Source: Candidatus Moranbacteria bacterium GW2011_GWE2_35_2- (lineage in GTDB: Bacteria; Patescibacteriota; Minisyncoccia; Moranbacterales; UBA9337). Taken from it: a stretch of 64,000 bases of DNA. The stretch lies in the NCBI GenBank assembly GCA_000990585.1, contig LBQD01000002.1, forward strand, positions 184,016 to 248,015. The letters are read 5' to 3'. The notes under the pieces were generated by a model. That model did not search any database, had not been told where the DNA came from, and saw only the letters and a list, made by a program, of their open reading frames with translations. Below are positions 3,428 to 63,918 of the stretch, in pieces (position 1 is the stretch's first letter; every line of letters begins with the position of its first letter). A program made the translations under genes and the position numbers.

Positions 3428-3465
3428 AACCCTCACCCCAACCCTCTCCCAGAGGGAGAGGGGGA
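3428..3465 (+). repeat. GC-rich palindromic element, copy 3 (intergenic, upstream of recO)
   Basis: GAACCCTCACCCCAACCCTCTCCCAGAGGGAGAGGGGGAA. Confidence 0.8.
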
Positions 3466-3517
3466 AATAATGCTATGATAATAGAATATTGAGATGTTAG
3501 TATGTTAAAATGATTTT

Positions 3518-4231
3518 ATGGAATACAAATATACGGGAATAATTTTGGGAAAATATGATGTCGGGGAGACCGACCGGATTTATGTTATTTACACCTTGGA
3601 GCAAGGAAAAATTCGCGCGCTTGCCAAAGGGGTGCGCAAGATGCATGCTAAACTGTCAGGATCACTGGAGAGTTTCAATTTGGTTGATATTTTGATTGCG
3701 CGCAACAGGGGGATGGGAAAGATAAAATCAGCGATTGTGGAGAGAAACTTTTCCGTTATTAAAAACAATTTTGAACTGTTGGAAAAGGTTTTTCAAGTTA
3801 TTGGAATTTTCGGTCGTTTAATGGAAGATGAACAAAAAGACGAAGAAGCGTTTTTTTTGCTTGCGCAATATTTGAAAATGATGAATGAAAAAAACGGAGA
3901 TGATTTTTTGCGTTTTAGGATAATAACGCAGGGATTTTTGCACCAACTTTTTTCTTTATTGGGATATCAATTAGAAATTTCCGGTTGTGCGGTTTGTCGG
4001 GAAAAAATAAAAGCCGGCGGTAATTTTTTTTCAATGAGTTGCGGCGGAGTTGTTTGCCATAAGTGTGGCAATGATGTGGTTGAGAAAATGCGCGTTACGG
4101 ACAATACAATCAAGGCGATGCGTATTTTTTCTTCGAATAATTTGAAGTCCTTATTAAAGTTAAAAATAAAAAAAGAGGAAATAACAGAGTTGGAAAGAGT
4201 ATCCGATTTGTTTTATCGATGGATTGTATAA
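3518..4231 (+). CDS. recO: DNA repair protein RecO
   Basis: N-terminal OB-fold region (GIILGKYDVGETDRIYVIYT), C-terminal CAVC...CHKC zinc motif typical of RecO. Confidence 0.8.
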   Translation: MEYKYTGIILGKYDVGETDRIYVIYTLEQGKIRALAKGVRKMHAKLSGSLESFNLVDILIARNRGMGKIKSAIVERNFSVIKNNFELLEKVFQVIGIFGRLMEDEQKDEEAFFLLAQYLKMMNEKNGDDFLRFRIITQGFLHQLFSLLGYQLEISGCAVCREKIKAGGNFFSMSCGGVVCHKCGNDVVEKMRVTDNTIKAMRIFSSNNLKSLLKLKIKKEEITELERVSDLFYRWIV

Positions 4232-4267: not shown

Positions 4268-6214
4268 ATGATACAATCTAATTGTTATATAGTTATTCGA
4301 ATAAAATTTTTTATGTCTCTTGATAACTTAAACAAAAAAATAAATAATCCCAATGAGTTGATTGATAATAGTGAAATTTACGGGGAAAAAAAATTACCAG
4401 TAGAGAACAAATTTATTATTGGTGATGGAAAAAAATGGAAGCGAACTAACGGTTGGCTGGATGAAGGAACATTGAAAATTATTAAAATTGCGATGATGGT
4501 TCTTGCCGGATTTTTTGTACTGGCGGCGATCGTTTATGGTGTTTTTCGGTACAGTCAAACTTCTTTTAGCGAGGAACGAGTGCTTGTTGAAATTGAGGGA
4601 CCGGCGGATATTAACAGTAGTGAAGTTGTAAAGTATAAAATAAAATATAAAAACAACAACCGAGCTGAACTTGAAAATGCGGAATTTGTGATTAGCTATC
4701 CTGAGAATTTCAATCCGGAAGGAAATTCTAATTTTCAAATTCAAGGGGAAAATAATAGTGTGGTTAAGGTGGGAAAAATAAAGTCTCGTGGTGAAGGTTA
4801 CGTGGAGATTAGTGGGCGTTTTTATGCGCCGATAAATTATACATTAATAATGAAAGCTTCATTGAAATACATGCCTTCAAATTTTAGCAGTCAATTTCAA
4901 TCTAGCACGCAAAAAGGTCTTAGCGTAAAAACTTCTCCGTTGGTAATTTCCATCAATGCTCCGATGGAGATTCTCAGTGAAAGTAAAATTAGTTATGTAA
5001 TCGGATACCAAAACACAAGTTCTATTTCTTTTGATGATTTGAAACTTGAAGTTGATTTTCCGAAAGGGTTTGAAATTCAAAATTCGGAAGTTTCTATTTT
5101 TAAAGAAAACAGCATTTGGAATGTTGGAAGGTTGGAGGCGGGGCAAAAAGGAGAAATCAAAATCGAGGGGATTATTCAAGGCGTAAGAGGTGATGTCAAA
5201 TCCATAAATGTCGCTATTGGACAGTTTAGGCAAGATAAGGAGTTGCTGGTGTTTGATAAAAGAGAAGCAATTTCTAAAATAGTGGTACTTCCTTTGTCCA
5301 TTTCACAAACAATAAATGAGCAAAAATCGCTTAATATCAATTCTGGGGAGAATTTGAATTATCGTTTGCATTATCGAAATGATGGAGATGTCGGATTGCG
5401 GGATTTGATTATAACGATGAAGATAGATTCTCCGGTTTTGGATTTTTCCAAGTTGAATTTGAGTGGCGGAGGTTCGTATGATTCGGAAAAAAAAGAAATT
5501 GCATGGAAAGCTTCTGATGTTTCTCAACTTGCCAAGCTTGATCCGGGTCAAGGAGGATCAGTAAGTTTTTCCATTCCAGTAAAAGACAAGATTGAAGTGA
5601 ACAGTAAGGAAGACAAAAATTTTTCAATTGAATCAATTGCTAAGATTGATAGTCCGGATGTGGCATATCCAGCGATAGGAGTAAATGAGAGTGCGAGCAG
5701 AGCGCTTGTAAAGGTCAATTCGAAAGTTATTTTAGAAACCGTCGGATATTATAAGGATGCGAATATTGCAACGTCCGGACCGATTCCTCCGGAAGTAGGC
5801 AAGGAAACGGAATATATTATTCATTGGTTAGTTACTAATATTTCCAATGATATTGATAATGTCTCGGTTTCCGCTTTTCTTCCGACGGGAGTGAAATGGA
5901 AAAACGAAATTTATTCAAAAACCGAGGATGTGAAATATAATGAAAGAACCAATGAGATTATTTGGAATCCGGGAAAAATTGAAAACGGAACCGGAATTTT
6001 GGGCAAAGTAAGAGATGTGAGTTTCAAAGTTTCGATAGTTCCACAAATAAATCAAGAAGGGAAAGCGGTTGTTCTTTTGGGAAAAACGACACTTAGGGCG
6101 AAAGACTTGTTTACTGGAAATGAAGTGTTAAAAGAAATTGCAGAAAAAAATACAGAACTTCGGGAAGATAGTAGTATTACATCTGCTGGTTATCAAGTGA
6201 AAAAAGGAGAGTAG
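4268..6214 (+). CDS. large N-terminally membrane-anchored surface protein, hypothetical (start uncertain; track start 4238 is TTG)
   Basis: single TM helix near residue 90 followed by ~550 aa beta-rich repeat-like domain; no catalytic motifs seen. Confidence 0.5.
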   Translation: MIQSNCYIVIRIKFFMSLDNLNKKINNPNELIDNSEIYGEKKLPVENKFIIGDGKKWKRTNGWLDEGTLKIIKIAMMVLAGFFVLAAIVYGVFRYSQTSFSEERVLVEIEGPADINSSEVVKYKIKYKNNNRAELENAEFVISYPENFNPEGNSNFQIQGENNSVVKVGKIKSRGEGYVEISGRFYAPINYTLIMKASLKYMPSNFSSQFQSSTQKGLSVKTSPLVISINAPMEILSESKISYVIGYQNTSSISFDDLKLEVDFPKGFEIQNSEVSIFKENSIWNVGRLEAGQKGEIKIEGIIQGVRGDVKSINVAIGQFRQDKELLVFDKREAISKIVVLPLSISQTINEQKSLNINSGENLNYRLHYRNDGDVGLRDLIITMKIDSPVLDFSKLNLSGGGSYDSEKKEIAWKASDVSQLAKLDPGQGGSVSFSIPVKDKIEVNSKEDKNFSIESIAKIDSPDVAYPAIGVNESASRALVKVNSKVILETVGYYKDANIATSGPIPPEVGKETEYIIHWLVTNISNDIDNVSVSAFLPTGVKWKNEIYSKTEDVKYNERTNEIIWNPGKIENGTGILGKVRDVSFKVSIVPQINQEGKAVVLLGKTTLRAKDLFTGNEVLKEIAEKNTELREDSSITSAGYQVKKGE

Positions 6215-51321: not shown

Positions 51322-52463
51322 AAATAGGTATTGATGGTTCGCGGGCGTTTTTGAAAAATCGCACGGGAATCGAAGAATATTCTTATCAAGTTATCAAACA
51401 CCTGAGGGACAAATTAGAAAGTCATCAGGTGATTTTGTATTTGAGGAAGAATCAAGAATTGAGAATCAAGAATCAGGGCTTTGAATTGCCGGAAAATTGG
51501 AAAGTGAAAGTGATAAGTTTTCCAAGGTTTTGGACTCAGATCGGATTGTCCTTGGAAATGCTTTTGCGTCCGATAGATGTGCTTTTTGTGCCGGCGCACA
51601 CAGTGCCGATCATTCATCCCAGAAAAACAATCGTGACAATTCATGGATTGGAATACGAATTTTGTCCCAAAGCTTATTCATTTTGGGAAAAAATTTATAT
51701 GCGCTGTTCGATAAAATTTTCTTGCAAGTGGGCGAGTAGGATTATTTCTGTTTCGGAAAATACCAGGAAAGATTTGATGAGATTGTATAATGCGCCGGAA
51801 AATAAGATTGAAGTTATTTATGAGGGATACAATTTTAATTTCCAATTTCCAATTTCCAATTTTCAATCAATTTCCAATGATAAAATTTTAAATTCAAAAA
51901 ATAAGTATCTACTGTTTATTGGCAGGCTGGAAAAACGGAAGAATACTCTGGGAATCATTAAGGCATTTGAAATTTTAAAAGAAAAATATCAAATTCCGCA
52001 CAAACTGATTTTGGCGGGAAAAGGCGGGTATGGAGAAGAGGAAATTAAAGATAAAATTGAAAAATCAAAATATAAAGAGGATATTATTTTACCGGGTTTT
52101 ATTGCCGAAGAAGAAAAATGGGAATTATTGAAAAATGCAGATGTTTTTTTGTTTCCGACTTTTTATGAGGGTTTTGGAATTCCGATTTTAGAAGCGCAAA
52201 GCGTCGGCACTCCTGTGGTGGCTGGAAACAATTCCTCAATTCCGGAAGTGGTGTCAGTAAAACAGGGAAGTATTGAATTGTCAGATCAAAAGTCAGCTTT
52301 GCTTGTGGATGTTAATAGCGCGGAAGAAATCGCCGAAGCAACTTATGAGCTTATTAACGATAATGATTTGAGAGAAAAAATAATTAAAATGGGATTGGAA
52401 AACGTCAAAAGATTTTCTTGGGAAAAATGCGCATCTTCTATTACTAAATTATTGAATAAATAG
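51318..52463 (+). CDS. glycosyltransferase family 4 (GT-B)
   Basis: C-terminal EGFGIPILEAQSVGTPVV EX7E region. Confidence 0.8.
   Translation: MKIGIDGSRAFLKNRTGIEEYSYQVIKHLRDKLESHQVILYLRKNQELRIKNQGFELPENWKVKVISFPRFWTQIGLSLEMLLRPIDVLFVPAHTVPIIHPRKTIVTIHGLEYEFCPKAYSFWEKIYMRCSIKFSCKWASRIISVSENTRKDLMRLYNAPENKIEVIYEGYNFNFQFPISNFQSISNDKILNSKNKYLLFIGRLEKRKNTLGIIKAFEILKEKYQIPHKLILAGKGGYGEEEIKDKIEKSKYKEDIILPGFIAEEEKWELLKNADVFLFPTFYEGFGIPILEAQSVGTPVVAGNNSSIPEVVSVKQGSIELSDQKSALLVDVNSAEEIAEATYELINDNDLREKIIKMGLENVKRFSWEKCASSITKLLNK
51447..51474 (+). repeat. heptanucleotide tandem array (AAGAATC)x4 inside glycosyltransferase gene
   Basis: aagaatcaagaattgagaatcaagaatcagg, in frame (KNQELRIKNQG). Confidence 0.8.
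51837..51880 (+). repeat. heptanucleotide tandem array (AATTTCC)x3-4 inside glycosyltransferase gene
   Basis: aatttccaatttccaatttccaattttcaatcaatttccaat, in frame (NFQFPISNFQSISN). Confidence 0.8.
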
Positions 52464-52536
52464 ATTGTTTGAAAGCTTTTTTTAGTGTTTTGGCGTAAGC
52501 AATAAATAAAAGATTTAATCGGGGCAAATTTTATTT

Positions 52537-53295
52537 TTATTTTACATTAATATATTTGCAAGAAAAATCCTTATCTCCTCCGGTAAGTCCAGCGGTAATG
52601 TGTCCTGGCGTAAAATTTCTTCCCTTGGAAGAGTGATATAAATAATATTTTTCTAATTGCTGTGCTGTTAGGTTTTTTTGTTTCAATATTTGAATAGCTT
52701 TTAATTCACCCGTTGCTCCTGGACCAAATTTTTCATCCAAACAATTATAAATAGCAACCAGTTGATTTTCAAAATTTTCATTGGCTGGCGAGGGGCTAGC
52801 TATAATTTTATCTACGATACCTGAATAAACTTTCAAAACATCTTGGGTGTCACTTTCGGTTTTTATATCTTTCTTGACTTTTGTTTGGCATAAACTCATA
52901 TCCTTATCATTGCAAATAGAGCCTCCGGTCACAAATCCCGCACCATGAAAATTAGAACAATTAAAACCACATTCATCTTCTTTACAACTCGGCTCTGCTC
53001 TTAATTCGAGGCAAAGTTTTTGATTTTCCTCTTTAATTTGTTTGGAATCTATAGAATTTGCCCAACCAAAAATTATCCACCCCACTAAACATCCAAGCAA
53101 AAATATATTTTTTTTGAAAGCAAGTAACCCAAAAACTATAGCTAACAAATAGCCGAAAATAGCGAATTGAAAATAATGATTATAAAACAGTGCTGGAATG
53201 GTAGAGGCTGCACCAAGTAAAAAAATAAAACCAAGCAATGCGACTGCTACTAAGTTTATAATTTTTAAAAATCCGATGATTTTGTCTTTATTCAT
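52537..53295 (-). CDS. membrane protein with Cys-rich extracytoplasmic domain, hypothetical
   Basis: 4 N-terminal TM helices then Cys-rich ~150 aa domain. Confidence 0.35.
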   Translation of the reverse strand: MNKDKIIGFLKIINLVAVALLGFIFLLGAASTIPALFYNHYFQFAIFGYLLAIVFGLLAFKKNIFLLGCLVGWIIFGWANSIDSKQIKEENQKLCLELRAEPSCKEDECGFNCSNFHGAGFVTGGSICNDKDMSLCQTKVKKDIKTESDTQDVLKVYSGIVDKIIASPSPANENFENQLVAIYNCLDEKFGPGATGELKAIQILKQKNLTAQQLEKYYLYHSSKGRNFTPGHITAGLTGGDKDFSCKYINVK

Positions 53296-53365
53296 GTATT
53301 TAAAATAAAAAAATAAAATTTGCCTCGATTAAATGCCCGATAGGGTCGAAAAGAATTTTTTAATA

Positions 53366-53540
53366 TTTCGCCTAACGTATCGGAGTATGCGAAGTTCGCT
53401 TTTTGGGTTTATTGATTATTATTTGAATTATCTGGTTACTATTTTAGATGATTTTTGCTTAAATTACCACCAAACAGAGAAAAGCGAATTTGGGAAAAAT
53501 TCGAGCCGAGCCTTTTTCCGCATACTCGGTGTTAGGCGAG
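53366..53540 (+). repeat. attC-like structured repeat R1
   Basis: left CGCCTAACGTATCGGAGTATGCGAAGTTCGC, right GCGAATTTGGG...CCGCATACTCGGTGTTAGGCGAG; inner stems pair within the copy. Confidence 0.7.
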
Positions 53541-53618
53541 GGTGAGCGGAACGGAGTGGAGCGAAAGCGCAGCGTCCCAGTAGCGTTTTCTTTTAAATTA
53601 TTTTTTGCGGTCGCGGGC

Positions 53619-53647
53619 TTGACAGATTATTCCTTATCTGCTATACT
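53619..53647 (+). promoter_or_regulatory. consensus-like sigma-70 promoter P1 inside cassette W
   Basis: TTGACA -17- TGcTATACT; near-identical module to P2 at 54648. Confidence 0.55.
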
Positions 53648-53742
53648 AAACGGTCAATAGTTGAGAAATCGTTTTTTAACTCAAAAGAGTGGTTTCTTGC
53701 TATTGCGAGGACTTACTCTATTTGGAGGAGGGAGGAGAAAAA

Positions 53743-53892
53743 ATGAAGAAAACAATAAAGATTTTGGCCGCAATAAATGCTGTATTAACTGTAGTAAATG
53801 CCGCAGTTAATATAAAGCCACTTACTGTGGCAGCTGCGGTGTTTTTCATTTTAATCACAATCATCATTTTTTCGATACCATCGAAGAAGTGA
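53743..53892 (+). CDS. small hydrophobic peptide (49 aa)
   Basis: GGAGGAGGGAGGAG RBS, ATG 53743, single TM peptide MKKTIKILAAINAVLTVVNAAV...; strong terminator follows. Confidence 0.35.
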   Translation: MKKTIKILAAINAVLTVVNAAVNIKPLTVAAAVFFILITIIIFSIPSKK

Positions 53893-53911
53893 TGATCCAC
53901 AGTTCCAATTC

Positions 53912-53945
53912 AAGGCGTTAGCTGTACAGCTAACGCCTTTTTTTC
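53912..53945 (+). terminator. rho-independent terminator
   Basis: AGGCGTTAGCTG-ta-CAGCTAACGCCT 12-bp perfect stem followed by TTTTTTT. Confidence 0.7.
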
Positions 53946-53972
53946 ATGAGCAAAAAATAATTTGAAAGAAAA

Positions 53973-54060
53973 TGTCGCCTAACGTTTACGCATCATCTGA
54001 AGTGCGAAGCATTTGAGTGAAGCGTAGCGAAACCGGATATGGGCTGTTGGGCGATGTAAG
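53973..54060 (+). repeat. attC-like repeat R2 (short, degenerate)
   Basis: left TGTCGCCTAACGTTTACGCATCATCTGAAG, right CTGTTGGGCGATGTAAGG. Confidence 0.55.
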
Positions 54061-54070
54061 GTTTGGCAAT

Positions 54071-54334
54071 TTATTTTTGTTTATTAAAATTTTTAACTGG
54101 AAAAAATAGTATCAAGCAGAAAGCTACCAAGCTATCAATATACGGAATTAACGGACAAATATTTTTTGAATAATAAATTTTTTTTTCACAATCTAAATCG
54201 CCGACTACACATGCGAGTTTCAATGTGCAATTACTTCCATATAAAAATTTATCGAAAATAACAAAAACCAGGACGGCGATAATTAAAGCGATGATAAATT
54301 TAATTTTAGTTGGTTTAAAAATTTTAATAAACAT
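54071..54334 (-). CDS. small membrane protein, hypothetical (cassette gene)
   Basis: 87 aa, two TM helices, Cys-containing loop; sits between R2 and R3. Confidence 0.3.
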   Translation of the reverse strand: MFIKIFKPTKIKFIIALIIAVLVFVIFDKFLYGSNCTLKLACVVGDLDCEKKIYYSKNICPLIPYIDSLVAFCLILFFPVKNFNKQK

Positions 54335-54373
54335 ATTTTTTTTTACTTATTAAAAATAAATTGCCAGACCTTA

Positions 54374-54594
54374 TTTCGCCTAACGTTTAAGAATATCTGA
54401 AGTCCTGCACTTTGGTTTTTATACACAAAACCTTGATATTCCTACTTTATTTGTTAATCTCATTATACTCTAATTTACAGCAAAACGGAAAAGTGCAGGA
54501 TTTGGGAGAGAAAAATTTGCCCTCCTTTTAGTTTTAACTGTGGCAAATTTTTTGAACCAGATATTCTTTGTTATCGGATGTAGCAAAAAACAAA
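54374..54594 (+). repeat. attC-like structured repeat R3
   Basis: TTTCGCCTAACGTTTAAGAATATCTGAAGTCCTGCAC...GTGCAGGATTTGGGAGAGAAAAATTTGCCCTCC...GGCAAATTTTTTGAACCAGATATTCTTTGTTATCGGATGTAGC. Confidence 0.75.
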
Positions 54595-54647
54595 CATTCC
54601 TTATTGTATTTATTTTTTTTCAAGCCCTTTTAAAATTTTTTGTGGTC

Positions 54648-54676
54648 TTGACAGGCTGGCTTTTTTCTGCTATACT
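54648..54676 (+). promoter_or_regulatory. consensus-like sigma-70 promoter P2 inside cassette X
   Basis: TTGACA -17- TGcTATACT, then AAAAGGAGG RBS before ATG 54736. Confidence 0.55.
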
Positions 54677-54735
54677 AACTTGATACTAATTTTGGTGTCT
54701 GTACATTACAAAACTCGAGAAAAAGGAGGTTTACA

Positions 54736-55296
54736 ATGGAACTCAAGAGTATATTGTCGGTAATTTCTGGCGTGTTGTTCGTTGCGGGATTCGTTCCCTA
54801 CATTATCGCAATACTGCGTGGTGAAACGAAGCCTGCAAAGGCCTCGTGGATAATCTGGGCAAGCCTTGACTATATTGTCTTGGCTGGCATGATTGCTGAA
54901 AAAACAGTCAACGGACAAATCCTTGGGGCTGTAATCGGAGCAACAATCGTCATCGGTCTGGCCATGAAATACGGAGCTTCGGGTTGGACAAGAACGGATA
55001 AATTTTGTCTCATCGGTGCAATGCTTGGCATTTCATTATGGATGATTTTTAAAAATCCAACCTTCGGCATCATGACAAGCTGCATTGTCGCATTTATCGG
55101 TTCTTTTCCCACGTTTATATCTGCGTGGAAAGACCCCAGTAAAGAAAACAGGCTTGCGTGGACTATTTTCTGGATTTCCTGCGTTTGCGCAATGATAGCC
55201 ATTCCGCGCATGACCTTTGCTGATGCAGCACAGCCCACAACCTTTTTTCTAATTGAAAGCGTCATGATGTATATTTTGTACTTTCGCGCTCGCTAA
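54736..55296 (+). CDS. polytopic membrane protein, hypothetical, GC-rich (foreign-looking)
   Basis: 186 aa, ~6 TM; strong promoter and RBS; GC ~48%. Confidence 0.5.
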   Translation: MELKSILSVISGVLFVAGFVPYIIAILRGETKPAKASWIIWASLDYIVLAGMIAEKTVNGQILGAVIGATIVIGLAMKYGASGWTRTDKFCLIGAMLGISLWMIFKNPTFGIMTSCIVAFIGSFPTFISAWKDPSKENRLAWTIFWISCVCAMIAIPRMTFADAAQPTTFFLIESVMMYILYFRAR

Positions 55297-55411
55297 ACTC
55301 GCAAGCGACATTATTGTAAGGTCATCAGTTGGATACTGGTGGCCTTTTTCTTTTTCTAAAATTTTAAAAGGGCTTGAAAAAAAATATTAATAAAAGGTTT
55401 GTTTTTTGCTA

Positions 55412-55440
55412 TTTCCGATAACGTAAGTGATATCTGAAGT
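55412..55440 (+). repeat. attC-like repeat R4, left arm (interrupted by cassette Y)
   Basis: TTTCCGATAACGTAAGTGATATCTGAAGT pairs with right arm at 55877. Confidence 0.55.
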
Positions 55441-55495
55441 TTTTATTTTCTTTCCTTATTATTTTTAAAAAAGGGAAAATAAAAATTTGGGTGGA

Positions 55496-55874
55496 GTGAA
55501 AGAAAAATATTATTTAATATCGATTAGAACAGCATCAACTTCTTCATCAGAAACAAACGCTCTGGTAACTTGCTCACATTGAATTTCATCAAAAATTTTC
55601 ACCACCACATATGTTCCAATGGTTTTTCCTTCGCCTAAAGTATATTTGGTTATGACACATCTGCCATAAGCATTCCAGTTTTCATCTCGCAGATCCATTG
55701 GAACTTTGATTTGATAAAGCCTGTGCCCGTTTTTACTAAAATTATACTTTTTGCCAATCTCGAGCGGATTAGGAATATCCTTTTTGTCCATTCTGAGACA
55801 GGCTTGCAATTCAAATGGGTTGCCCATAAATTTTTTGATATTAACGGAGATATTAAATAATATTTTTCTTTCAC
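55496..55874 (+). mobile_element. TIR-bounded mini-cassette Y carrying a 105-aa gene, inserted inside repeat R4
   Basis: 26-bp TIRs GTGAAAGAAAAATATTATTTAATATC / GAGATATTAAATAATATTTTTCTTTCAC; left TIR overlaps stop codon of the gene. Confidence 0.55.
55510..55827 (-). CDS. hypothetical protein (cassette gene)
   Basis: 105 aa soluble protein, no motif recognised. Confidence 0.4.
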   Translation of the reverse strand: MGNPFELQACLRMDKKDIPNPLEIGKKYNFSKNGHRLYQIKVPMDLRDENWNAYGRCVITKYTLGEGKTIGTYVVVKIFDEIQCEQVTRAFVSDEEVDAVLIDIK

Positions 55875-55876
55875 GT

Positions 55877-55907
55877 AACCAGATATTACTTGTTATCGGA
55901 TGTGGCG
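55877..55907 (+). repeat. attC-like repeat R4, right arm
   Basis: AACCAGATATTACTTGTTATCGGATGTGGCG. Confidence 0.55.
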
Positions 55908-55922
55908 AATACTTGGAGCTAT

Positions 55923-56042
55923 TTCCGATAACGTTTCAGTATATCTGATGTTTGCCAAAATTCCTTTAAAAATCAATAAGTTTTTGGCAAATATGGGTCG
56001 AGCGAGGGCACGAGCGAGCCAGATATACTGTGTTGTGCGAGG
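55923..56042 (+). repeat. attC-like repeat R4b (short complete copy)
   Basis: TTTCCGATAACGTTTCAGTATATCTGATG...TTTGCCAAAA/TTTTGGCAAA...AGCCAGATATACTGTGTTGTGCGAGG. Confidence 0.65.
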
Positions 56043-56175
56043 GTTATTTTCTGGAGTGATAACGGAAGAAAATCAAGTGCAACGACCCCGAAGCGTATTT
56101 TTCAATATTTTTTCATTCCTTATTATTTTGTTGAAGAATTTTATCATTATTTGGAATTTTTATTTTTTCGTTTTT

Positions 56176-56212
56176 CTTTTTCCAAGAGGGGTTAGGGGTG
56201 AATTGGAAAAAG
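56176..56212. repeat. hairpin with G-rich loop GAGGGGTTAGGGGTGAA (half copy of the ileS GC-rich element), at 3' end of IIG gene
   Basis: 10-bp stem CTTTTTCCAA/TTGGAAAAAG around loop. Confidence 0.5.
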
Positions 56213-56221
56213 AAAAACACC

Positions 56222-58642
56222 TTATTTTAAATATTTCTTTAACTCATCAAAACCATAACTATTTTCTACAATATTTTTTATATACTCCAAATCTAACTCC
56301 TTGTCGTTTTTAAAAGGCATTGGAATATTCATTTTTTTAAGTTTTGTTAAATTTAATTTTCTGTAATAATTATATCTCCATTGATGATTTTTTATCATTA
56401 CTGAAATATAAAATAATAAATATGGATTATATTCATTTTTTAATGTTAGAACTGCATTATCTCCGCTAGTTATAAAATCATCAAATTGAAAAAATGTTTC
56501 TCCAACACTTCCGTTTAATGCCACAGTTAGACATTTGCCTTTAAAATTTGGATCTTCATCGTAATAACCGGATACTCCATTATTTAGCGATGAAGTAGTA
56601 ACATATGGAATATTACCTATTTCTAAAGAATTTTGAGGCAAGGCTGTTTTTTTGTTTATAATACATAAACCATTTTCTTGCTCTTCTTTTATATAAATTA
56701 CTGGTATAAATTTTATTTTAGGCTGTTTCCCTATATGTTTACTTCTCCATTTTTTAGTTTTTATTAAATATGTTAATGATTCTTTTATAGCATTGTCTAA
56801 TTGTTCTTCGACTTCTTTAATATCAGGTATTTTATTATCTATATAAACCTCGGGGGTAAGTTCTATGTTTACATCATTATTATCAAGCTTACAAATTTTC
56901 TTAAATTCTGGAGCGTCTTCAAATTTTAGATTTTGATTAACTAAAAATGCTTTCAATTCTTCTTTTATTTCTTTTATTTGATTTCTTTCTCTTTCTTCAT
57001 CAAAAATTCTTTTTCCTTTCTTTTTTCTATATCCGTCCGTAACACCTCTTGCAAAATATACATTTTGACTATTAAAATTATGAGGAACACCCTTTTTTAT
57101 AAATACTCCTATTGTTCCAACACTAACAGGATAAAATAGATCTTCTGGCAAAGTAACAACCGATAATAAAGTATTATTTTCTAGTAAATCTTTTCTCCAA
57201 GATTTTCCACCTCCACCTTCAACCATTACAGAGATTGGAACAATGGCAAAAAGAATACCACCGTCTTGCATTTGAGATAATGCATGATCTATAAAATGTC
57301 TTTCTTTTTCATCTCCTTTTTTAAGAGCAAAAGGAGGGTTCATTAATACTTTAGTGATAACTGGATTTTTAGTTAATTCATTACCTATTCTTTTTACAAA
57401 TTCACCTGTTTGATTTCCTTTTTTATTAGTTAATTCTATATTTTTTTGAAAACAATTTCCCTCACTCATATTATTTCTTCCATCTCCCCTAAAAATCATA
57501 TTTACAAGTGCAAGTGCTACGACTTCATCGTCCTGTTCAATTCCAAAAAGATTATAATTTTTAAATTTTTCTATTTGTTTATCGCTTGAATTTTTTTTGA
57601 TATGATCAAAAGAAGAAACTAAAAAACCACCTGTACCACAAGTCGGATCAAGAACATAATCATTGTGATTTACATCTAAAACTTCAACTGCAAATTCTGT
57701 TATATGTCTAGGAGTTAAAACGATACCTATCTCTTTTGCACCATTTCCATATTTCAAAAATTTTTCATAAAATTCTCCTAAAATATCTTTACCAGAAGCC
57801 ATTGCATTCTTAATATCTAAAGCCTCTAATTCTTTAATTGTTTCCTTGATTGCGTCCCTATATTTTATGTGATTCTCTCTGCTTGGTGGTAATTCTAATT
57901 TTAGAAAATTAAAAAAACTTTCTTTTTCTACTTCTCTTAGTTTTTTATTGATTAATGAATTAACACTTTCAACTAATGTTGTTGTATCATTTTCTTTTAG
58001 ATTGATAAAAGAATTATCTGCCAAAGAAAGTACAAGTCCTGCAATGAATCTAGCTCTTTTATTTTTATTTATCCCTGCATTATGTAAAATTTCATTTATT
58101 TCTAATGCTGAATCTATATATTTTTCTTCTGGCAAATCTGGAAACTCCGACCATTCTGGCTTATCGTGTTCTAAAATATATTGAGCTTGTTTTTTTGAAA
58201 GTAAGATATTTTTTATCTTTCCTTTTTCCAAAAGCACATTTTCCCATTTCCCATTTTTTAAATATTGATTTTTGACTATATAACCATCTGTATCATTTCC
58301 AGCTACTCCAGAAATTAAAACACATTTAATTTTTTTACTTTTGTTAATCTTTTTCGCATATTGATTTTTTGCCTCATCAAGAGCTTGTTCTATCATATCT
58401 CTATCTCTCTTGCTTTCAATTGCCCAAAATTCTTCACTATTAAGTTTTACCACAGCTTCTGGCATATCTCTATCCAGAAGATTTTTTAGTTCTTTATGGT
58501 ACAAAACTTCATTTTGCTTATAAACTTCACCATCAGAAACCCTAGCAGGATTTTTTACAATCCAACCTAATTTATCAAGCTCTTCCTTGATATAAGTATA
58601 AGCATCAACCTCACTATTTTTTGGTTTAGATGAATGAGTCAT
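56222..58642 (-). CDS. Type IIG-like restriction-modification fusion protein (N6-adenine MTase + TRD, putative N-terminal nuclease)
   Basis: MTase motif I DPTCGTGGFL, motif IV NPPF, HsdM-like GEFYEKFL...TPRHI; C-terminal HsdS-type TRD; N-terminal PE...IESK possible PD-ExK; very AT-rich codon usage. Confidence 0.55.
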   Translation of the reverse strand: MTHSSKPKNSEVDAYTYIKEELDKLGWIVKNPARVSDGEVYKQNEVLYHKELKNLLDRDMPEAVVKLNSEEFWAIESKRDRDMIEQALDEAKNQYAKKINKSKKIKCVLISGVAGNDTDGYIVKNQYLKNGKWENVLLEKGKIKNILLSKKQAQYILEHDKPEWSEFPDLPEEKYIDSALEINEILHNAGINKNKRARFIAGLVLSLADNSFINLKENDTTTLVESVNSLINKKLREVEKESFFNFLKLELPPSRENHIKYRDAIKETIKELEALDIKNAMASGKDILGEFYEKFLKYGNGAKEIGIVLTPRHITEFAVEVLDVNHNDYVLDPTCGTGGFLVSSFDHIKKNSSDKQIEKFKNYNLFGIEQDDEVVALALVNMIFRGDGRNNMSEGNCFQKNIELTNKKGNQTGEFVKRIGNELTKNPVITKVLMNPPFALKKGDEKERHFIDHALSQMQDGGILFAIVPISVMVEGGGGKSWRKDLLENNTLLSVVTLPEDLFYPVSVGTIGVFIKKGVPHNFNSQNVYFARGVTDGYRKKKGKRIFDEERERNQIKEIKEELKAFLVNQNLKFEDAPEFKKICKLDNNDVNIELTPEVYIDNKIPDIKEVEEQLDNAIKESLTYLIKTKKWRSKHIGKQPKIKFIPVIYIKEEQENGLCIINKKTALPQNSLEIGNIPYVTTSSLNNGVSGYYDEDPNFKGKCLTVALNGSVGETFFQFDDFITSGDNAVLTLKNEYNPYLLFYISVMIKNHQWRYNYYRKLNLTKLKKMNIPMPFKNDKELDLEYIKNIVENSYGFDELKKYLK

Positions 58643-58864
58643 AAGTTTAGATTATTATAAATATAAATTTATTATAGCATGTAGCAACATATTAATAAAA
58701 AAAATTAAATTTTCAATTATGGTTTTATTAAATAATCATTTTTTGCGGAGGAACGGAGCAAAAAATATCCGCTTATCCCCCTCATAAAAATAAAAAAATA
58801 AAAATTCCATTCCTTTTTAAATTCTTCAACAAAATTTTCATTTGAGAAAAAATATTGAAAAATA

Positions 58865-59064
58865 TGTCGCACAACGTATCGGCATCATCTGAAGTTGCGC
58901 CCATATTTATTGGCTAAAACTTCAACTTTCTATCTACTTTAATTATATCACTAAATTTTGTCCTATCACAGCGCAATTTGGGAGAGAAAATTTTTCAAAC
59001 CTTGGCGTTAAAAGATATAAAGGTGAAAAATTTCCGAACCAGATATGCCGTGTTAGCTGATGTA
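58865..59064 (+). repeat. attC-like structured repeat R5
   Basis: TGTCGCACAACGTATCGGCATCATCTGAAGTTGCGCCC...CAGCGCAATTTGGGAGAGAAAA...GAACCAGATATGCCGTGTTAGCTGATGTA. Confidence 0.75.
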
Positions 59065-59128
59065 TTTTTTTTGTCTTCTATTTTATTGGTACAAATTTTG
59101 TTTATTCTAAAAGAAAATTTGATTTTTG

Positions 59129-59177
59129 TTTTGGATTTTGGGCAGAGGGGTCAGGGGTGAATGCCCAAAATCCAAAA
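59129..59177. repeat. hairpin with G-rich loop GAGGGGTCAGGGGTGAA, at 3' end of 59185..59664
   Basis: 16-bp perfect stem TTTTGGATTTTGGGCA/TGCCCAAAATCCAAAA. Confidence 0.55.
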
Positions 59178-59184
59178 CTCCTTT

Positions 59185-59664
59185 TTATTTTTCCTCTAGA
59201 TCTTTACCAGATATCCATGCTTCATACAATATTTCATCACGAGTTTTATAATGGCTTTCTTCAATTTTAACATCTTCCATTCTTTTCATATAAGCTGCGT
59301 ACAAAGGAGACTCTTTTTTCATATATTCAATGTATGCATCATCAATTCCGTTGTAAGTTGGGTCTGCCATCATTTTTTGTACACGATATTCATCCTTTCC
59401 CTTTTCTAGCTTTTTCCACTCTTGGGCTAATTCTTCATCACTACGATTATCACCAGCCAACCTTGCTCTGTTGATGTAAATATCCGTTCTTTCTTTCTCT
59501 AACTTCTCCATCTCTACAATATCCTGCTCCTCAGTTTGCTCATAATCTCTTGTGCCTGGATTAAAATCTCTTTCCATAGCTTCTAACCCTTCTATGTGGG
59601 CAGTTTCAGCATCTTTACTGCCTGGCTCTGGAGTAAAACTCCCAAAATTTTCTTTGTTTCCCAT
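59185..59664 (-). CDS. acidic hypothetical protein (cassette gene)
   Basis: 159 aa, E/D/K-rich, no motif recognised. Confidence 0.35.
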   Translation of the reverse strand: MGNKENFGSFTPEPGSKDAETAHIEGLEAMERDFNPGTRDYEQTEEQDIVEMEKLEKERTDIYINRARLAGDNRSDEELAQEWKKLEKGKDEYRVQKMMADPTYNGIDDAYIEYMKKESPLYAAYMKRMEDVKIEESHYKTRDEILYEAWISGKDLEEK

Positions 59665-59679
59665 ATTTTTTTACTTAAA

Positions 59680-60285
59680 TTAATTAATATTTATTACTTT
59701 TATTATTTCATCAAAACTAGAAACTATTTTGAACGGTTTTCCTTTTTCGAGTCTGTCTTTTTTGTGAAAGCCAAAATCGACTGCAATTGTTTTGACTCCG
59801 ACTTTATTCCCTTCTATAATATCTCCCAGAGTATCAGTCACAAAAACACAATCTTCAGCTTTGAATTTGTATTTTTCAAATAAGTATTTGAATTTTTCAA
59901 CTTTAGATTGATGTGTTTCAGCTCCCAATATTTCCTTAAAAATGTGAACGAATTTATTGTTTTGAAAATAAATATTCAACGCCTCCTCTTGATTGGATGA
60001 AATAATAAACAAAAGATATCTCAGTGATAGTTTTTCTAAATTACTTTTAACACTCGCGTCTATTTTAAGATGCTCGAACGCTTTATTTTGCAACTTATAA
60101 AATTGCTCGCTATCCGCCTTTTCCTTTTCCTCATCAACCACTACTTTTTCAAAGATATTTCCATTGAAAAAATCCCTATGTTGTTCTCGAGTTAGATTCC
60201 CGCCAGAAATCTTAAGGTTTATTTGATAGGCCATTTCATATGTATCATGAATTACACCATCAAAATCAAAAATAATTGCTTTCAT
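59680..60285 (-). CDS. HAD superfamily hydrolase (subfamily IA-like)
   Basis: motif I IIFDFDGVI, motif III K, motif IV VFVTDTLGDIIEG. Confidence 0.7.
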   Translation of the reverse strand: MKAIIFDFDGVIHDTYEMAYQINLKISGGNLTREQHRDFFNGNIFEKVVVDEEKEKADSEQFYKLQNKAFEHLKIDASVKSNLEKLSLRYLLFIISSNQEEALNIYFQNNKFVHIFKEILGAETHQSKVEKFKYLFEKYKFKAEDCVFVTDTLGDIIEGNKVGVKTIAVDFGFHKKDRLEKGKPFKIVSSFDEIIKVININ

Positions 60286-60429
60286 AGGTTATTTGCTATA
60301 AATAGTTTTTTTATGCCTCTTTGTAGGCAGAAAAAACACCTTTTACCCCTCTATAAATAAATTAAAAATCAAATTTTCTTCGTGGTTCAACGCACAAATC
60401 TCAAAATTATCACCAAAGACAAAAAAATA

Positions 60430-60547
60430 TTTCAGCTAACGTTTGCGTGTATCTGAAGTTGCGCCCGTTATTTTTTTGGCTAAACTTCAATATTCACTTG
60501 TCTGAATTATATCACCGAACCCCAATTATTAGAAGGCGCAATTTGGG
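60430..60547 (+). repeat. attC-like repeat R6, left part (interrupted by cassette Z)
   Basis: TTTCAGCTAACGTTTGCGTGTATCTGAAGTTGCGCCC...GGCGCAATTTGGG. Confidence 0.7.
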
Positions 60548-60610
60548 CGAAGCCAGAGAATGAATTTATAATTTTTTTCCTTATAAAAAAGGCTCTTTTT
60601 GATTTTTTCG

Positions 60611-60639
60611 TTGACAGAACGGTTTTTTTCGTTTAAGGT
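60611..60639 (+). promoter_or_regulatory. putative sigma-70 promoter P3 inside cassette Z
   Basis: TTGACA -17- TAAGGT, then AAGGAGG RBS before ATG 60684. Confidence 0.45.
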
Positions 60640-60683
60640 AACCTCAGTACAAAATCCATAAACCCAGAAAAGGAGGAAATAAA

Positions 60684-61160
60684 ATGAAGCTCTTTAATAT
60701 CTTCAAGAAAAAAATCGTGGCTGGTTGCGGACACGAAACGCTGAAAAAGGACAAGGTGACGGCTTTCGGTGCAAGTTGCGAAACCAAAATCCCGATCGCT
60801 GACGGCAAAACCGACTATTGTCATCGTTGTCTCGAGAAAATGGCAATTAGGTGCGCCTGGTGCGGTGAAGTCATTTTCATCGGCGACCCGATTACTCTCT
60901 ATTCTCCGAAAGACAAAGACCGTAAGATGCCTGATTATGCTGTACCTCACAACAAAGAACACAATTCCTACGTGGGATGCTTCCGTTGGAACTGTGCCGA
61001 GACAGGCGCGGATAGAGCTGGATTTTGGTATCCGCCAGGCAAGGTTTACCGTGTTCCGACGCCGATTGAGATGTGCATGAAGAACATGCAAAACGGCGGT
61101 GATGGCGTAATTTGTGTCGGCGATCTCAGTGATCGCAAGGAGGCAGTGAGAGGCTTGTAA
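60684..61160 (+). CDS. Cys-rich hypothetical protein, GC-rich (foreign-looking)
   Basis: 158 aa with >=12 Cys (CxH..C, CHRC, CAWC, CFRWNC...); ~50% GC; overlapping ORFs on other frames are shadows. Confidence 0.45.
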   Translation: MKLFNIFKKKIVAGCGHETLKKDKVTAFGASCETKIPIADGKTDYCHRCLEKMAIRCAWCGEVIFIGDPITLYSPKDKDRKMPDYAVPHNKEHNSYVGCFRWNCAETGADRAGFWYPPGKVYRVPTPIEMCMKNMQNGGDGVICVGDLSDRKEAVRGL

Positions 61161-61215
61161 AAAATCAAAAAGAGCCTTTCAAAAATAAGAAAAAATTATA
61201 AATTCATTCTCTGGC

Positions 61216-61247
61216 GTAGCCAGATACACGCTGTTAGGCGATGTAAA
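61216..61247 (+). repeat. attC-like repeat R6, right arm
   Basis: GTAGCCAGATACACGCTGTTAGGCGATGTAAA. Confidence 0.65.
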
Positions 61248-61333
61248 TTTTAGCTAAACGCTATATTACATCGCCTTTTTTATTGGTAGATGTAAAAGTA
61301 AAAACAATAAATATTTTTATTAAGCTAAAATTT

Positions 61334-61531
61334 ATTTCGCCTAACGTATCGGCATCATCTGAAGTTGCGCCCGTAGTTATTAGCTAAAACTTCAAATATC
61401 TACCTGTTTTTGATTATATCACTAAATTCTAACAAACGTCAGCGCAATTTGGGAGAGAAAAATTTGCCCTCCTTTTAGTTTTAACTGAGGCAAATTTTTT
61501 GAACCAGATATGCCGTGTTGTGCGATGTAAA
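61334..61531 (+). repeat. attC-like structured repeat R7
   Basis: TTTCGCCTAACGTATCGGCATCATCTGAAGTTGCGCCC...CAGCGCAATTTGGGAGAGAAAAATTTGCCCTCC...GGCAAATTTTTTGAACCAGATATGCCGTGTTGTGCGATGTAAA. Confidence 0.8.
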
Positions 61532-61536
61532 ATTTT

Positions 61537-61794
61537 TTATCGTTTGCTATGGGTTAACTTTAATATTAACAAAGACAGTGTGAGAGACGCTTCAATTGTA
61601 GTAAAAATCATTATGGGACGACTATGCAATCCAATGCCATATATTATAAATAGAATCAGCCCGATTAAAAGCAAGGAATTCCACAACAAAGAAATATCTT
61701 CTGTTGATTTAGTTGTCCATGATTTAATCACCTGAGGCACAAGGGCTGATGCGATGATTGCCGAACCAGCAAAACCTACGATTTCAATATCCAT
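61537..61794 (-). CDS. SemiSWEET/PQ-loop family small transporter (putative)
   Basis: 85 aa, 3 TM, ALVPQVIKSWTTKSTEDISLLW PQ-loop motif. Confidence 0.5.
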   Translation of the reverse strand: MDIEIVGFAGSAIIASALVPQVIKSWTTKSTEDISLLWNSLLLIGLILFIIYGIGLHSRPIMIFTTIEASLTLSLLILKLTHSKR

Positions 61795-61915
61795 AATGAT
61801 TTTTACGTTAGTTAATAAAAAATTTTATTTCGCACAACTGGTTTTATCCGTACCTGCCAATAATTTGGCTTGGATTAAGGTTTGTGGTATGATTTTGATG
61901 TAATCATACTGTCTT

Positions 61916-62773
61916 ATGAATGAATATTATCATAAAAGAAAAAATGCGACAATGACAGAAATGGACTCATTAAACAGATTGGAACGAGAATTGAAAATTC
62001 GTGGATTTAGTTTAAAAACCGTCAAGTCTTATTTGATGTATAATAGGCTATTTTTGGAATTTATAAAGAAAAGTCCTAAAGCGATTACAAATGATGACAT
62101 TCGTCAATATTTATTATCTCTGAAAAATAAAAATTGCGCTAATTCCACTTTAAACGTGGCGCTTAATGCTTTGAAGTTTTATTATCGAGGAATACTTAAA
62201 AGAAAATTCTTTTTTGATATAAAAAGCGCTAAAAAAACTAACTATTTGCCGACGGTTCTTAGTAAGGAAGAAGTTAAGAGAATGTTAGAGATGACCACAA
62301 ATCCAAAACATAATTTTTTCATAGCCTTGATGTATTCGTCCGGTTTGCGTGTTAGCGAGGCAGTCAAAATAAGGATGTGTGATTTTGATTTAGATAGAAA
62401 AATAATCACAGTGCGGCAAGGAAAGGGTGCAAAAGATCGCTGCACGCTTCTGTCGGAAAAACTTATACCGACATTAAAAAAGCAACTAACACTTAAAAAA
62501 TCAAATGATTATTTATTTACTGGGGCAGGTGGAAACGGACATCTAACTGTTGAAAGTGCCGAAAAAATAATTAGAAAGGCAGTTGAGTCAGCCAATATCG
62601 TTAAAAAAGTTTCTTGTCACAGTTTGCGACATTCTTTTGCCACTCATCTTCTGGAATCTGGTACGAGTATTCGGTATATTCAAGAACTTTTAGGGCATGC
62701 TAGACTGGAAACAACACAAATTTACACTAAAGTTGCCAATAATAATTTACAAAATATCCAAAGTCCGTTATGA
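61916..62773 (+). CDS. tyrosine site-specific recombinase, XerC/XerD-like
   Basis: GLRVSEAVKIRMCD (Arg I), VRQGKGAKDR, HSLRHSFATHL (His/Arg II), LGHARLETTQIYTKV (catalytic Tyr); no IntI-specific insertion. Confidence 0.8.
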   Translation: MNEYYHKRKNATMTEMDSLNRLERELKIRGFSLKTVKSYLMYNRLFLEFIKKSPKAITNDDIRQYLLSLKNKNCANSTLNVALNALKFYYRGILKRKFFFDIKSAKKTNYLPTVLSKEEVKRMLEMTTNPKHNFFIALMYSSGLRVSEAVKIRMCDFDLDRKIITVRQGKGAKDRCTLLSEKLIPTLKKQLTLKKSNDYLFTGAGGNGHLTVESAEKIIRKAVESANIVKKVSCHSLRHSFATHLLESGTSIRYIQELLGHARLETTQIYTKVANNNLQNIQSPL

Positions 62774-63918
62774 AAAGAGATATAAAAGTAGCGTTGGTGC
62801 ATGATTTTTTGGTTGATTTCGGGGGAGCGGAAAGGGTTTTTGAGGTTTTGTGTGAAATGTTTCCTGAGGCTCCGATTTACACCTTGCTATATGACAAAGA
62901 TAAAATGTCCGCCAAGAGTGAACCAGCCTTTGACTGGAATAAGCGGGAAATTCATACTTCATTTCTTCAAAAATTTCCTCGTTTTTTGCGTAATCATAAA
63001 AAATGGTTATTGCCGTTTCTTCCGGTAGCGCCGGAAACTTTTGACTTGCGTGATTTTGATTTGGTGATTTCATCTTCCGGAGCTTGGAGTAAAGGAATTA
63101 TTACGCGACTCAATACAATTCATGTTGCCTATATCCACAGTCCGATGAGGTTCGTGTGGGATTATAACAGCGCCAAATATCTCAAGGAAAACAAGAAGAG
63201 TAAGTTCGGTTTTTGCGTGCAGCCATTTTTGAATTATCTCCGGATTTGGGACAAGCAGGCGGCAGATCGTCCGGATTATATCATCGCTAATTCACAATAC
63301 ACACAAAAAAGAATTGCGAAATATTATCGGAAGGACAGCGAGGTGGTTTATCCGCCAACTCAAAATTTTCAATTTTCAAATGTTAAAATAAATTATGATT
63401 CGGGAAATTCAAAATTTTTTTTGATTGTTTCCCGGCTTTCGCCGTATAAACGAGTGGATTTGGCGGTAAGGGTTTTCAATAAATTAAATCTGCCTTTGGT
63501 GGTAATTGGCGATGGAGAGCAAAAAAAATATTTGCAAAAAATCGCCAAAGAGAATGTAAAAATTTTGGGATGGAAAGATGATGCGGATGTTGCAAAATAT
63601 TATCAAAATGCGCGTGCTTTTATTTTTCCGGCAGTGGATGATTTTGGAATGACAATGGTTGAAGCAAACAGCTTTGGTGTTCCGGTTATTGCATATCGAA
63701 AAGGCGGAGCTTTGGATATTGTCAGAGAAGGAGAAAATGGAGAATTTTTTGATATACAAAGTGCGGAGAGCTTGATTTCTTGTGTGAAAAAATTTATTGA
63801 AAAAGAAGATGAATATAATAAAGAAGTGATTGTAAAATCGGCAGAAAGGTTTTCCAAAGAAATGTTTAAAAAAGAATTTAATAGATATTTGAATAAAATT
63901 TATGTTTATCGGAAATAA
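62770..63918 (+). CDS. glycosyltransferase family 4
   Basis: C-terminal EANSFGVPVIAYRKGGALDIV EX7E-type motif; start overlaps recombinase stop (ATGA). Confidence 0.8.
   Translation: MKRDIKVALVHDFLVDFGGAERVFEVLCEMFPEAPIYTLLYDKDKMSAKSEPAFDWNKREIHTSFLQKFPRFLRNHKKWLLPFLPVAPETFDLRDFDLVISSSGAWSKGIITRLNTIHVAYIHSPMRFVWDYNSAKYLKENKKSKFGFCVQPFLNYLRIWDKQAADRPDYIIANSQYTQKRIAKYYRKDSEVVYPPTQNFQFSNVKINYDSGNSKFFLIVSRLSPYKRVDLAVRVFNKLNLPLVVIGDGEQKKYLQKIAKENVKILGWKDDADVAKYYQNARAFIFPAVDDFGMTMVEANSFGVPVIAYRKGGALDIVREGENGEFFDIQSAESLISCVKKFIEKEDEYNKEVIVKSAERFSKEMFKKEFNRYLNKIYVYRK

Follow-up and report, generated by a model that had tools for sequence, protein, structure and literature searches.

In a 64-kb stretch of DNA from Candidatus Moranbacteria GW2011_GWE2_35_2-, a Candidate Phyla Radiation (CPR) bacterium, four small inverted-repeat units (W, X, Y and Z) are probably parts of an integron-like cassette array, in which their inverted repeats are stems of the array architecture and the genes Y and Z lie inside attC-like recombination sites. 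The array occupies positions 53368-61838 of this stretch, hereafter called the window. A sequence-only reading of the window had described the four units as single-gene mini-elements with terminal inverted repeats (TIRs), forming a second, nested layer of mobile modules. Their character as discrete repeat-bounded modules of promoter, gene and sometimes terminator stood up to analysis, but the separate transposon-like layer did not, and the units are probably not jumping genes in their own right.

Briefly, the window was compared with 112 loci fetched from other contigs and genomes (labelled L003, L008, L017 and so on); loci carrying Z came from a scan of metagenome contigs, which gave 80 loci, and from look-ups by protein identity. 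Cassettes are numbered such that c8 is the W cassette, c6 the X cassette, c5 the Y cassette, c4 the restriction-modification cassette and c2 the Z cassette. Protein X is encoded on 24 contigs of independent assembly (from ENA, JGI and NCBI), and so is protein Z; the loci fetched from these contigs for comparison were 99.8-100% identical to the window, with values of 100% or 99.99% for the contigs that were aligned. An assembly artefact such as a chimeric join, which would have undone the sequence-only reading as well, was excluded because the 24 independent contigs carry the identical structure.

The array contains eight attC-like sites and about nine cassettes. Read on the + strand, each site consists of an R'' box (TCGCCTAAC), a GTWT spacer, an L'' box (a variable 6-7 nt followed by ATCTGAAGT), the hairpin of arm A, a TTTGGG linker, the hairpin of arm B, an L' box (CCAGAT followed by a variable part), a single T and an R' box (GTTAGGCGA), and arm A, TTTGGG and arm B keep this order in all site bodies. 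On the - strand, outward from the recombinase, each cargo slot is thus followed by R''-L''-arm B-CCCAAA-arm A-L'-R'. Conserved AAC...GTT boxes were present at 8 sites, and the L'-R' pattern gave 6 matches vs 0.02 expected. When the 9-base R boxes at opposite ends of one cassette were compared, 71 of 72 positions were complementary, vs 57 of 72 within one attC as it stands in the array, which is the classical sign of a crossover inside the R box. Five distinct variable L''/L' sequences occurred, each with a complementary partner (i.e., co-variation), and a single-strand fold of site h gave a three-armed shape (z = -3.2). The asymmetry of the spacers, with GTWT on one arm and T on the other, was conserved, and an L-box bulge was seen in only 2-3 of the 8 sites. 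This asymmetry sits on the opposite arm from that predicted by gene orientation in classical integrons. Most cassette genes are - strand genes that face away from the recombinase, but W, X and Z are encoded on the + strand. A scan of 52000-62500 with Rfam returned no relevant RNA family.

From left to right the attC-like sites are a (53368-53539, from R'' TCGCCTAAC to R' GTTAGGCGA), b (53975-54054, short at 80 nt), c (54376-54578, three-armed and of the same type as the site left of the homologous cassettes in L003 and L008), d (55414-55900, with gene Y in arm B), e (55924-56040), f (58867-59060, paralogous to g and h and short in arm B), g (60432-61241, with the Z promoter-gene module in arm B) and h (61337-61525, which served as the 'empty' reference for arm B). 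Sites without genes inside measure 80-203 nt, and the gene-bearing sites d and g measure 487 and 810 nt; the L''/L' pair of site g (GCGTGTATCTG/CAGATACACGC) is fully complementary. Between the first cassette and the recombinase gene lies an attI-like junction (61830-61915), in which a variable R box (TCGCACAAC) is followed by the conserved TGGTTTTATCC. A variable R box followed by T(G/A)GTTTT(T)AT stands 77-80 nt upstream of the recombinase gene in the window (77 nt), L008 and L017; the junction was also found in L051, and its R box differs among the genomes. Two irregular sites were seen in the comparison loci. At about 250-640 of L017 a cassette gene is followed by an L'-R' half-site that has no R''-L'' half, i.e., a broken or fused site, and at 4140-4200 of L003 the R boxes of a 45-nt cassette that lacks an open reading frame (ORF) read GATATGC/GCATATC instead of GTT.../...AAC, which shows that the GTT triplet can vary in the family.

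All four inverted-repeat pairs that had been read from the sequence alone were present: W at 53586-53608 / 53950-53972 (23 nt, 96%), X at 54611-54639 / 55358-55386 (29 nt, 100%), Y at 55496-55521 / 55849-55874 (26 nt, 100%) and Z at 60546-60608 / 61159-61221 (63 nt, 84%). Each unit holds a single ORF (49, 186, 105 and 158 aa for W, X, Y and Z), again as had been described. These sequence features, from the inverted repeats and promoters to the terminator and small genes, are real and go far beyond chance expectation. Textbook promoters had been claimed for W, X and Z. Those of W and X were the two best sigma-70-like matches in 53300-61900 (TTGACA-17-TATACT, 11/12, with TG); the claim did not hold for Z, whose -10 element TAAGGT (60634-60639) agrees with the consensus at 3 of 6 positions and fell below the threshold of the promoter scan, although it is kept as TAAGGT or TAAAGT in orthologous copies. 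Y lacks its own promoter, and the Y stop codon overlaps with the repeat. The description of W as a 49-aa hydrophobic peptide with its own promoter and a 12-bp-stem terminator was borne out (12-pair stem at 53912-53939). The GC content was 49.1% for Z, 44.9% for X, 34.7% for W and 36.8% for Y, cf. 32.9% for the array and 36.0% for the window; the value of ~48-50% given earlier for both X and Z therefore fits Z and is too high for X.

A search of the cargo proteins against Pfam, NCBIfam and PADLOC, which the earlier reading had proposed, gave no match for W, the 186-aa X and the 158-aa Z; the 105-aa Y protein belongs to DUF2584. The predicted structure of Z was confident (predicted local distance difference test, pLDDT, of 84), and comparison of this model with the PDB gave no fold match (best E-value 1.5). 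Elsewhere, most homologues of X, Y and Z are plain chromosomal genes with no repeats around them (X and Y at 70-85% identity; Z more distant).

The repeats are not peculiar to W to Z: every other cassette long enough also has terminal repeats. We aligned the first bases of each cassette to the reverse complement of its last bases by local alignment and compared the scores with 200 shuffles. Terminal inverted repeats of 23-110 nt were found in all window cassettes with room for them, promoterless ones included, and run mostly from the R boxes inward, with scores of 19-49 vs shuffle means of 9-14 (X, 49 vs 9.8±1.6; W, 21 vs 9.6±1.5). The sole exception in the window was a 41-nt ORF-less cassette, which has room for its R boxes only. 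Nine further cassettes in L003, L008, L017 and L022 followed the same pattern, with repeats that start at the R box in 8 of the 9 and 16 nt inside it in the remaining one; seven of these scored clearly beyond all shuffles and two scored 19, at or just above the shuffle maximum.

In the X cassette (c6, 54570-55422, +), a single imperfect inverted repeat of 70 nt extends from the R box (54570-54639 / 55358-55422), and the perfect 29 nt are its inner end; inside this repeat lie the promoter (54648-54676), the gene for the 186-aa membrane protein (54736-55296, +) and a terminator (55318-55346). In the W cassette (c8, 53531-53983, +), with its promoter at 53619-53647, its ORF at 53743-53892 and its terminator between the two repeats, the right arm ends 2 nt from the R'' box and the left arm is split from R' by a 46-nt GC-rich insert (53540-53585). 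Since the W and X repeats merge with the cassette boundary and such stems are universal in the array, they are probably the inner parts of cassette-end stems that start at the R boxes, rather than the termini of an independent element; once a cassette is circular, these end stems would lengthen the attC hairpin. GC-rich inserts of ~46-55 nt right after R' boxes, which set the R' box apart from the end stem, were seen both in c8 and in c4 (56041-56095), and L005, the NCBI assembly of the host genome, has a 20-nt deletion within the latter.

Y and Z do lie inside attC-like sites, as had been recognised, but they do not replace the whole central loop: only arm B is affected, and arm A and the TTTGGG linker are kept. 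Arm B of site d (55496-55874, -) is a 26-bp perfect stem with Y (55510-55827) in its loop and the stop codon of Y in the stem, and the cargo slot of this cassette is an ORF-less 41 nt (55892-55932). Arm B of site g (60546-61221, +) has a 63-nt stem, 84% complementary, that encloses the promoter (TTGACA-17-TAAGGT, 60611-60639) and the gene for the 158-aa Cys-rich protein Z (60684-61160, +); the slot of the Z cassette is likewise ORF-less (61233-61345, +; 113 nt with 26-nt terminal repeats). Both stems start where arm B starts in gene-free sites (TTTGGG + 4 nt) and end 2-4 nt before CCAGAT. When whole sites were folded as single-stranded DNA, site d (487 nt) kept its R/L stem, arm A and the 26-bp arm-B stem with Y in the loop (z = -6.1), and in site g (810 nt) the R/L stem and arm A were kept too, a long arm-B stem closing the loop that contains Z (z = -6.4). 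Y and Z would thus be the cargo of cassettes whose usual slot is ORF-less, and what had been called their TIRs would be arm-B stems, which in single-stranded DNA could bring L'' and L' (380-680 nt apart) together such that the site still folds.

Comparison among genomes showed that Z travels with its site. In eight contexts (the window, L019, L021, L023, L025, L051, L022 and L024) Z is framed by the same attC arms in the same orientation, the R'' box upstream of the site is different in each of the eight, and the R' box is always GTTAGGCGATGTA in the 7 of 7 contexts with a readable downstream flank. Because Z is constant within its arms across these contexts, the gene moves with its site as one cassette. 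Decayed copies of Z were found in L026 and L040, and the Y homologue in L101 keeps R''-L'' and the left stem. No terminator for Z lies inside arm B; a terminator-like + strand hairpin read from the sequence of the ORF-less slot (61237-61282, stem GGCGATGTAA/TTACATCGCC then T6, in part the R' box) appears to be the one that Z uses, and L051, which has a different slot sequence, also carries a terminator-like hairpin there, which indicates that the cassette is the functional unit. A pattern search of the fetched loci for further genes within attC sites returned only Z orthologues and false pairings; one candidate in L017 proved to be such a false pairing between two neighbouring sites.

The array adjoins a gene for a tyrosine recombinase (61916-62773, +) that is related to integron integrases (IntI). 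It scored 234 bits with the XerA-type model NCBIfam NF040815, above the cutoff of 220, and 229.8 with the integron integrase model TIGR02249, below the cutoff of 265 and matched in two stretches. The best match in the PDB was VchIntIA (2a3v, E 1.8e-48), again in two stretches and best for both halves of the protein; motifs of the catalytic domain such as HSLRHSFATHLLE align with VchIntIA, and residues 186-240 of IntI4, the 55-residue IntI-specific additional domain, are faced by only 13 residues in the array enzyme. An additional domain of this type around patch III is held to be defining for integrons (Messier and Roy 2001, as cited in PMC9668308) and has been treated as defining for archaeal integrons too (PMC9668308). 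With a TIGR02249 score below cutoff and the segment 186-240 missing, the array recombinase is not an IntI-type integrase with the additional domain and so falls outside a defining test for integrons, though the array behaves like one.

W, X and Z are further linked by a shared set of expression signals. The TIRs of the four units had been called unrelated in sequence, which is true of Y; those of W, X and Z are homologous in their inner parts, and the relatedness that had been noticed between the left ends of W and X was confirmed and extends to Z, with W as the weaker variant. Homologous TIRs surround unrelated coding sequences in X, Z, L003 (110 aa), L008 (80 aa) and L022 (a fifth cargo, 112 aa), and four of these five (all but L022) also have a common promoter and leader. 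The frame reads TCCTTAT - GCCCTTTTGAAATTTTTT repeat - TTGACAGG-17-TATACT - leader - Shine-Dalgarno site. It is most evident in the L003 110-aa and L008 80-aa cassettes, in which the attC of type c, R boxes, end stems, repeat, promoter and ~45 nt of leader are 85-97% identical and the coding sequences and terminators are unrelated. The X leader follows that of L008 up to the Shine-Dalgarno site, L003 diverges about 15 nt earlier, and the repeat, promoter and leader of Z align to the X/L003/L008 family. The homology end points differ between pairs, and no repeat or site was found at the cargo boundaries. Promoter hexamers were dropped as proof of homology, given that ordinary chromosomal X homologues have the same consensus (TTGACA..TGCTATACT); because these hexamers are generic, the homology of the frame rests on the repeats and the leader. 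Judged from these alignments, a conserved expression frame surrounds coding sequences that appear to be exchangeable. No conserved RNA structure was predicted in the shared leader (0 pairs), and scans of viral contigs for the promoter frame and the Z repeat gave no match. The motif TCCTTAT (AAGGAG-like on the - strand) occurs at 54598-54604, 60578-60584, 55455-55461 and 56125-56131, and a shorter CTCCTT variant is found in the arm-B loops of sites c and h; it thus recurs in arm loops and just outside the promoter repeats, with the left copy better conserved than the mirrored right one.

Several observations weigh against interpreting W to Z simply as parts of an integron-like array. In a simulated single strand of the array, the X cassette ends paired in preference to the R boxes of attC c, and the long stems might thus compete with attC folding rather than help it. 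In L019, L021 and L025 the two arms of the Z stem differ, and these differences were uncompensated (8 of 8 in the outer 22 nt), which indicates that selection for pairing is loose. Among the fetched loci, none had the same attC without Z or without Y, although these loci had been chosen via Z and are not a fair test. As the recombinase has no additional domain, single-strand recombination of attC cannot be assumed. Finally, the frame is present in two different structural slots, cargo slots and attC arm B, a distribution that one or more moves of the module as a unit would explain more easily.

This last point bears on a rather unlikely but possible alternative, in which modules of repeat, promoter, leader and gene form a second layer that is exchanged by recombination at or inside the repeats, apart from whole-cassette recombination. 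It would account for the homologous TIRs around unrelated genes in X, Z, L003, L008 and L022 (the first four with promoter and leader, W being weaker), for the occurrence of the frame in cargo slots as well as arm B, and for the orthologous frames of L003 and L008 with different cargo. Against it, the homology ends at points that differ between pairs (cf. the earlier divergence of L003) and the cargo boundaries are unmarked; each specific TIR also forms one pair only in the window and the 112 loci, the Y repeat is unrelated and Y promoterless, and the hexamers at ordinary chromosomal X homologues make part of the similarity generic. Non-autonomous TIR transposons, resembling miniature inverted-repeat transposable elements (MITEs) with cargo and mobilised in trans by a transposase encoded elsewhere in the genome, are very improbable. 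Like such elements, the units have near-perfect terminal inverted repeats around single genes with no transposase inside, and two of them interrupt a repeat family. However, the flanks of W, X, Y and Z as read from the sequence are not direct repeats, so a target-site duplication is lacking, and none of the ORFs of the array or of the related loci examined was noted as a transposase, although these ORFs were not screened systematically. The check for further TIR copies that the sequence-only reading had put forward gave none in the window or the 112 loci beyond orthologous Z cassettes, the whole genome and metagenome not having been scanned for TIRs. The W to Z units differ from MITEs also in that their single-copy repeats are continuous with recombination boxes, the same repeats bound promoterless cassettes, genes and promoters are carried, and Z was never apart from its attC arms in eight contexts.

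The fixed relation of Z to its site is equally at odds with invertible segments, in which the recombinase would flip genes flanked by inverted repeats. Inverted repeats around whole genes and a nearby tyrosine recombinase are what such a switch would use, but the orientation of Z relative to the attC arms is the same in all eight contexts, W, X and Z have their own promoters and would not be switched by flipping, and the repeats are imperfect and of very different lengths, which makes this explanation barely credible. Xer-type recombination merits somewhat more weight and is nevertheless quite improbable. In pdif modules of Acinetobacter plasmids, genes lie between inversely oriented XerC/D sites; by analogy, R-spacer-L would be a double-stranded site of alternating orientation, cargo and attC body would be modules of alternate phase, and Y and Z would be second-phase genes. 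The recombinase is indeed Xer-like, passing the XerA-type cutoff and having no IntI domain, both kinds of segment are bounded by inverted half-sites, and the fold of the array can pair the ends of cargo modules together with the neighbouring L cores. The array differs from pdif modules in that R-spacer-L, as read from the sequence, has no dyad symmetry as a duplex (no 11-6-11 site; R and L boxes on one strand are not inverted copies), and L'' and L' co-vary within a site, as in a hairpin. Structured bodies with arm A, TTTGGG and arm B in fixed order stand between the modules, and the array abuts a conserved attI-like junction beside a dedicated recombinase gene.

If the units are parts of an integron-like array, as we favour, its sites would recombine as folded single strands, and genes may have entered arm B or the expression frame. 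The genes on the + strand would need promoters of their own since the platform promoters would serve the - strand, perhaps including TGnTATAAT elements in arm A of sites f and h. W, X and Z are oriented opposite to the array and therefore have their own promoters, like the reverse-oriented cassettes of chromosomal integrons. Promoter-like sites in the array direction were found in the arm-A loops of attC f (58942-58969, -; GTGATA-16-TATAAT with TG) and attC h (61413-61442, -; CTGACG-18-TATAAT with TG). An extended -10 element (TGnTATAAT) was also seen by eye in the arm-A loop of site g (about 60505-60522). These elements could drive the next cassette, such that each site brings a promoter for its downstream neighbour. 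A more speculative and itself unlikely extension is that the system is proto-integron-like, combining an IntI relative that lacks the single-strand-recognition domain with very long hairpins, and that new cassettes arise as genes land in the hairpin loops of ORF-less cassettes. The landing spots would be the end stem or arm B of attC, some of them already supplied with promoter and leader. If this were true, cassette genesis, a process not observed for classical integrons, would have been caught in progress in the Y and Z cassettes and in the frame with its swapped coding sequences.

Among known systems, the array most resembles sedentary chromosomal integrons such as the Vibrio superintegron with its VCR attC sites. 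Shared features include a recombinase gene beside an attI-like junction, cassettes mostly in one orientation, imperfect-palindrome sites with AAC...GTT, cassette ends that match each other and not the neighbour, and similar attC types within an array. Chromosomal integrons have been described to contain cassettes without an ORF as well as reverse-oriented ones with their own promoters (PMC8876359; bioRxiv 10.1101/2023.11.21.568050), and the array has both. Unlike chromosomal integrons, its enzyme has no IntI domain, its gene-free sites have two internal arms joined by a fixed TTTGGG linker, cassette-end pairing runs 23-110 nt past the R boxes, two genes lie inside attC (487 and 810 nt), arm A carries promoter-like TGnTATAAT, and the host is a CPR bacterium. 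With respect to the proposed Xer-like ancestry of integron integrases (Escudero et al. 2016, PMC4792948), VchIntIA is the closest structure, and the array enzyme differs from it by the missing insertion and passes the XerA-type cutoff. Literature searches returned no description of integrons in the CPR, and none of an attC site that holds a complete gene with a promoter, in classical integrons or elsewhere. The array is set apart by the IntI-related enzyme without its hallmark domain, the long cassette-end stems, the genes within attC and the shared promoter-leader frame.

The array behaves as a cassette array, with matching cassette ends, differing arrays in related strains and the same cassette in many genomes, and it touches two open questions, namely the origin of integron cassettes and the evolution of the integron integrase from Xer-like recombinases. 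Reconstitution of the enzyme and its sites would make both testable. Arrays of this kind would probably escape annotation tools with an attC length limit of about 200 nt and an obligatory IntI domain.

Related strain L003 shares the first three cassettes with the window and then has different ones. The two are identical over 3.8 kb (59112-62885); leaving aside a few mismatches in and beside the R'' box (58868-58878), every difference in the shared block maps to the attC f body or the 60 nt next to it (58926-59111). The comparison did not locate the crossover cleanly, as perfect identity holds only from 59112 onward and the attC f body has diverged, a pattern that points to homologous exchange at attC f. 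Site bodies appear to be hot spots of exchange or divergence.

Other features of the array and its cargo were noted. Homologues of Y (DUF2584) with 56-63% identity are annotated in Nanoarchaeota and in CPR bacteria (P0160, P0171), which suggests cross-domain spread of this small gene. Distant homologues of Z, with their own promoters, lie within GC-rich inverted repeats of an unrelated repeat family in L049 (52% identity; repeats 3645-3746 / 4613-4714, 102 nt, 99%) and L089 (42% identity; repeats 3581-3660 / 4749-4828, 80 nt, 82%), and gene-in-hairpin units may therefore exist in other systems. The most distal gene (52484-53379, 252 aa, -) has a 31-57-nt inverted repeat and a degenerate R-like box (GTTTTGGCG) with no attC body after it, and could represent an old cassette or else the original flank on the attI side. 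Cassette c4 carries a defence gene (56222-58642, -) for an 806-aa Type IIG restriction-modification enzyme (PADLOC, 3.6e-44). Terminator-like hairpins with a G-rich loop (GAGGGGTNAGGGGTG) follow - strand cassette genes at 59106-59200, at 56170-56225 and at about 4490-4560 of L008, and a C/G-rich repeat related to these hairpins occurs in three copies far from the array (457-504, 2278-2325 and 3425-3472).

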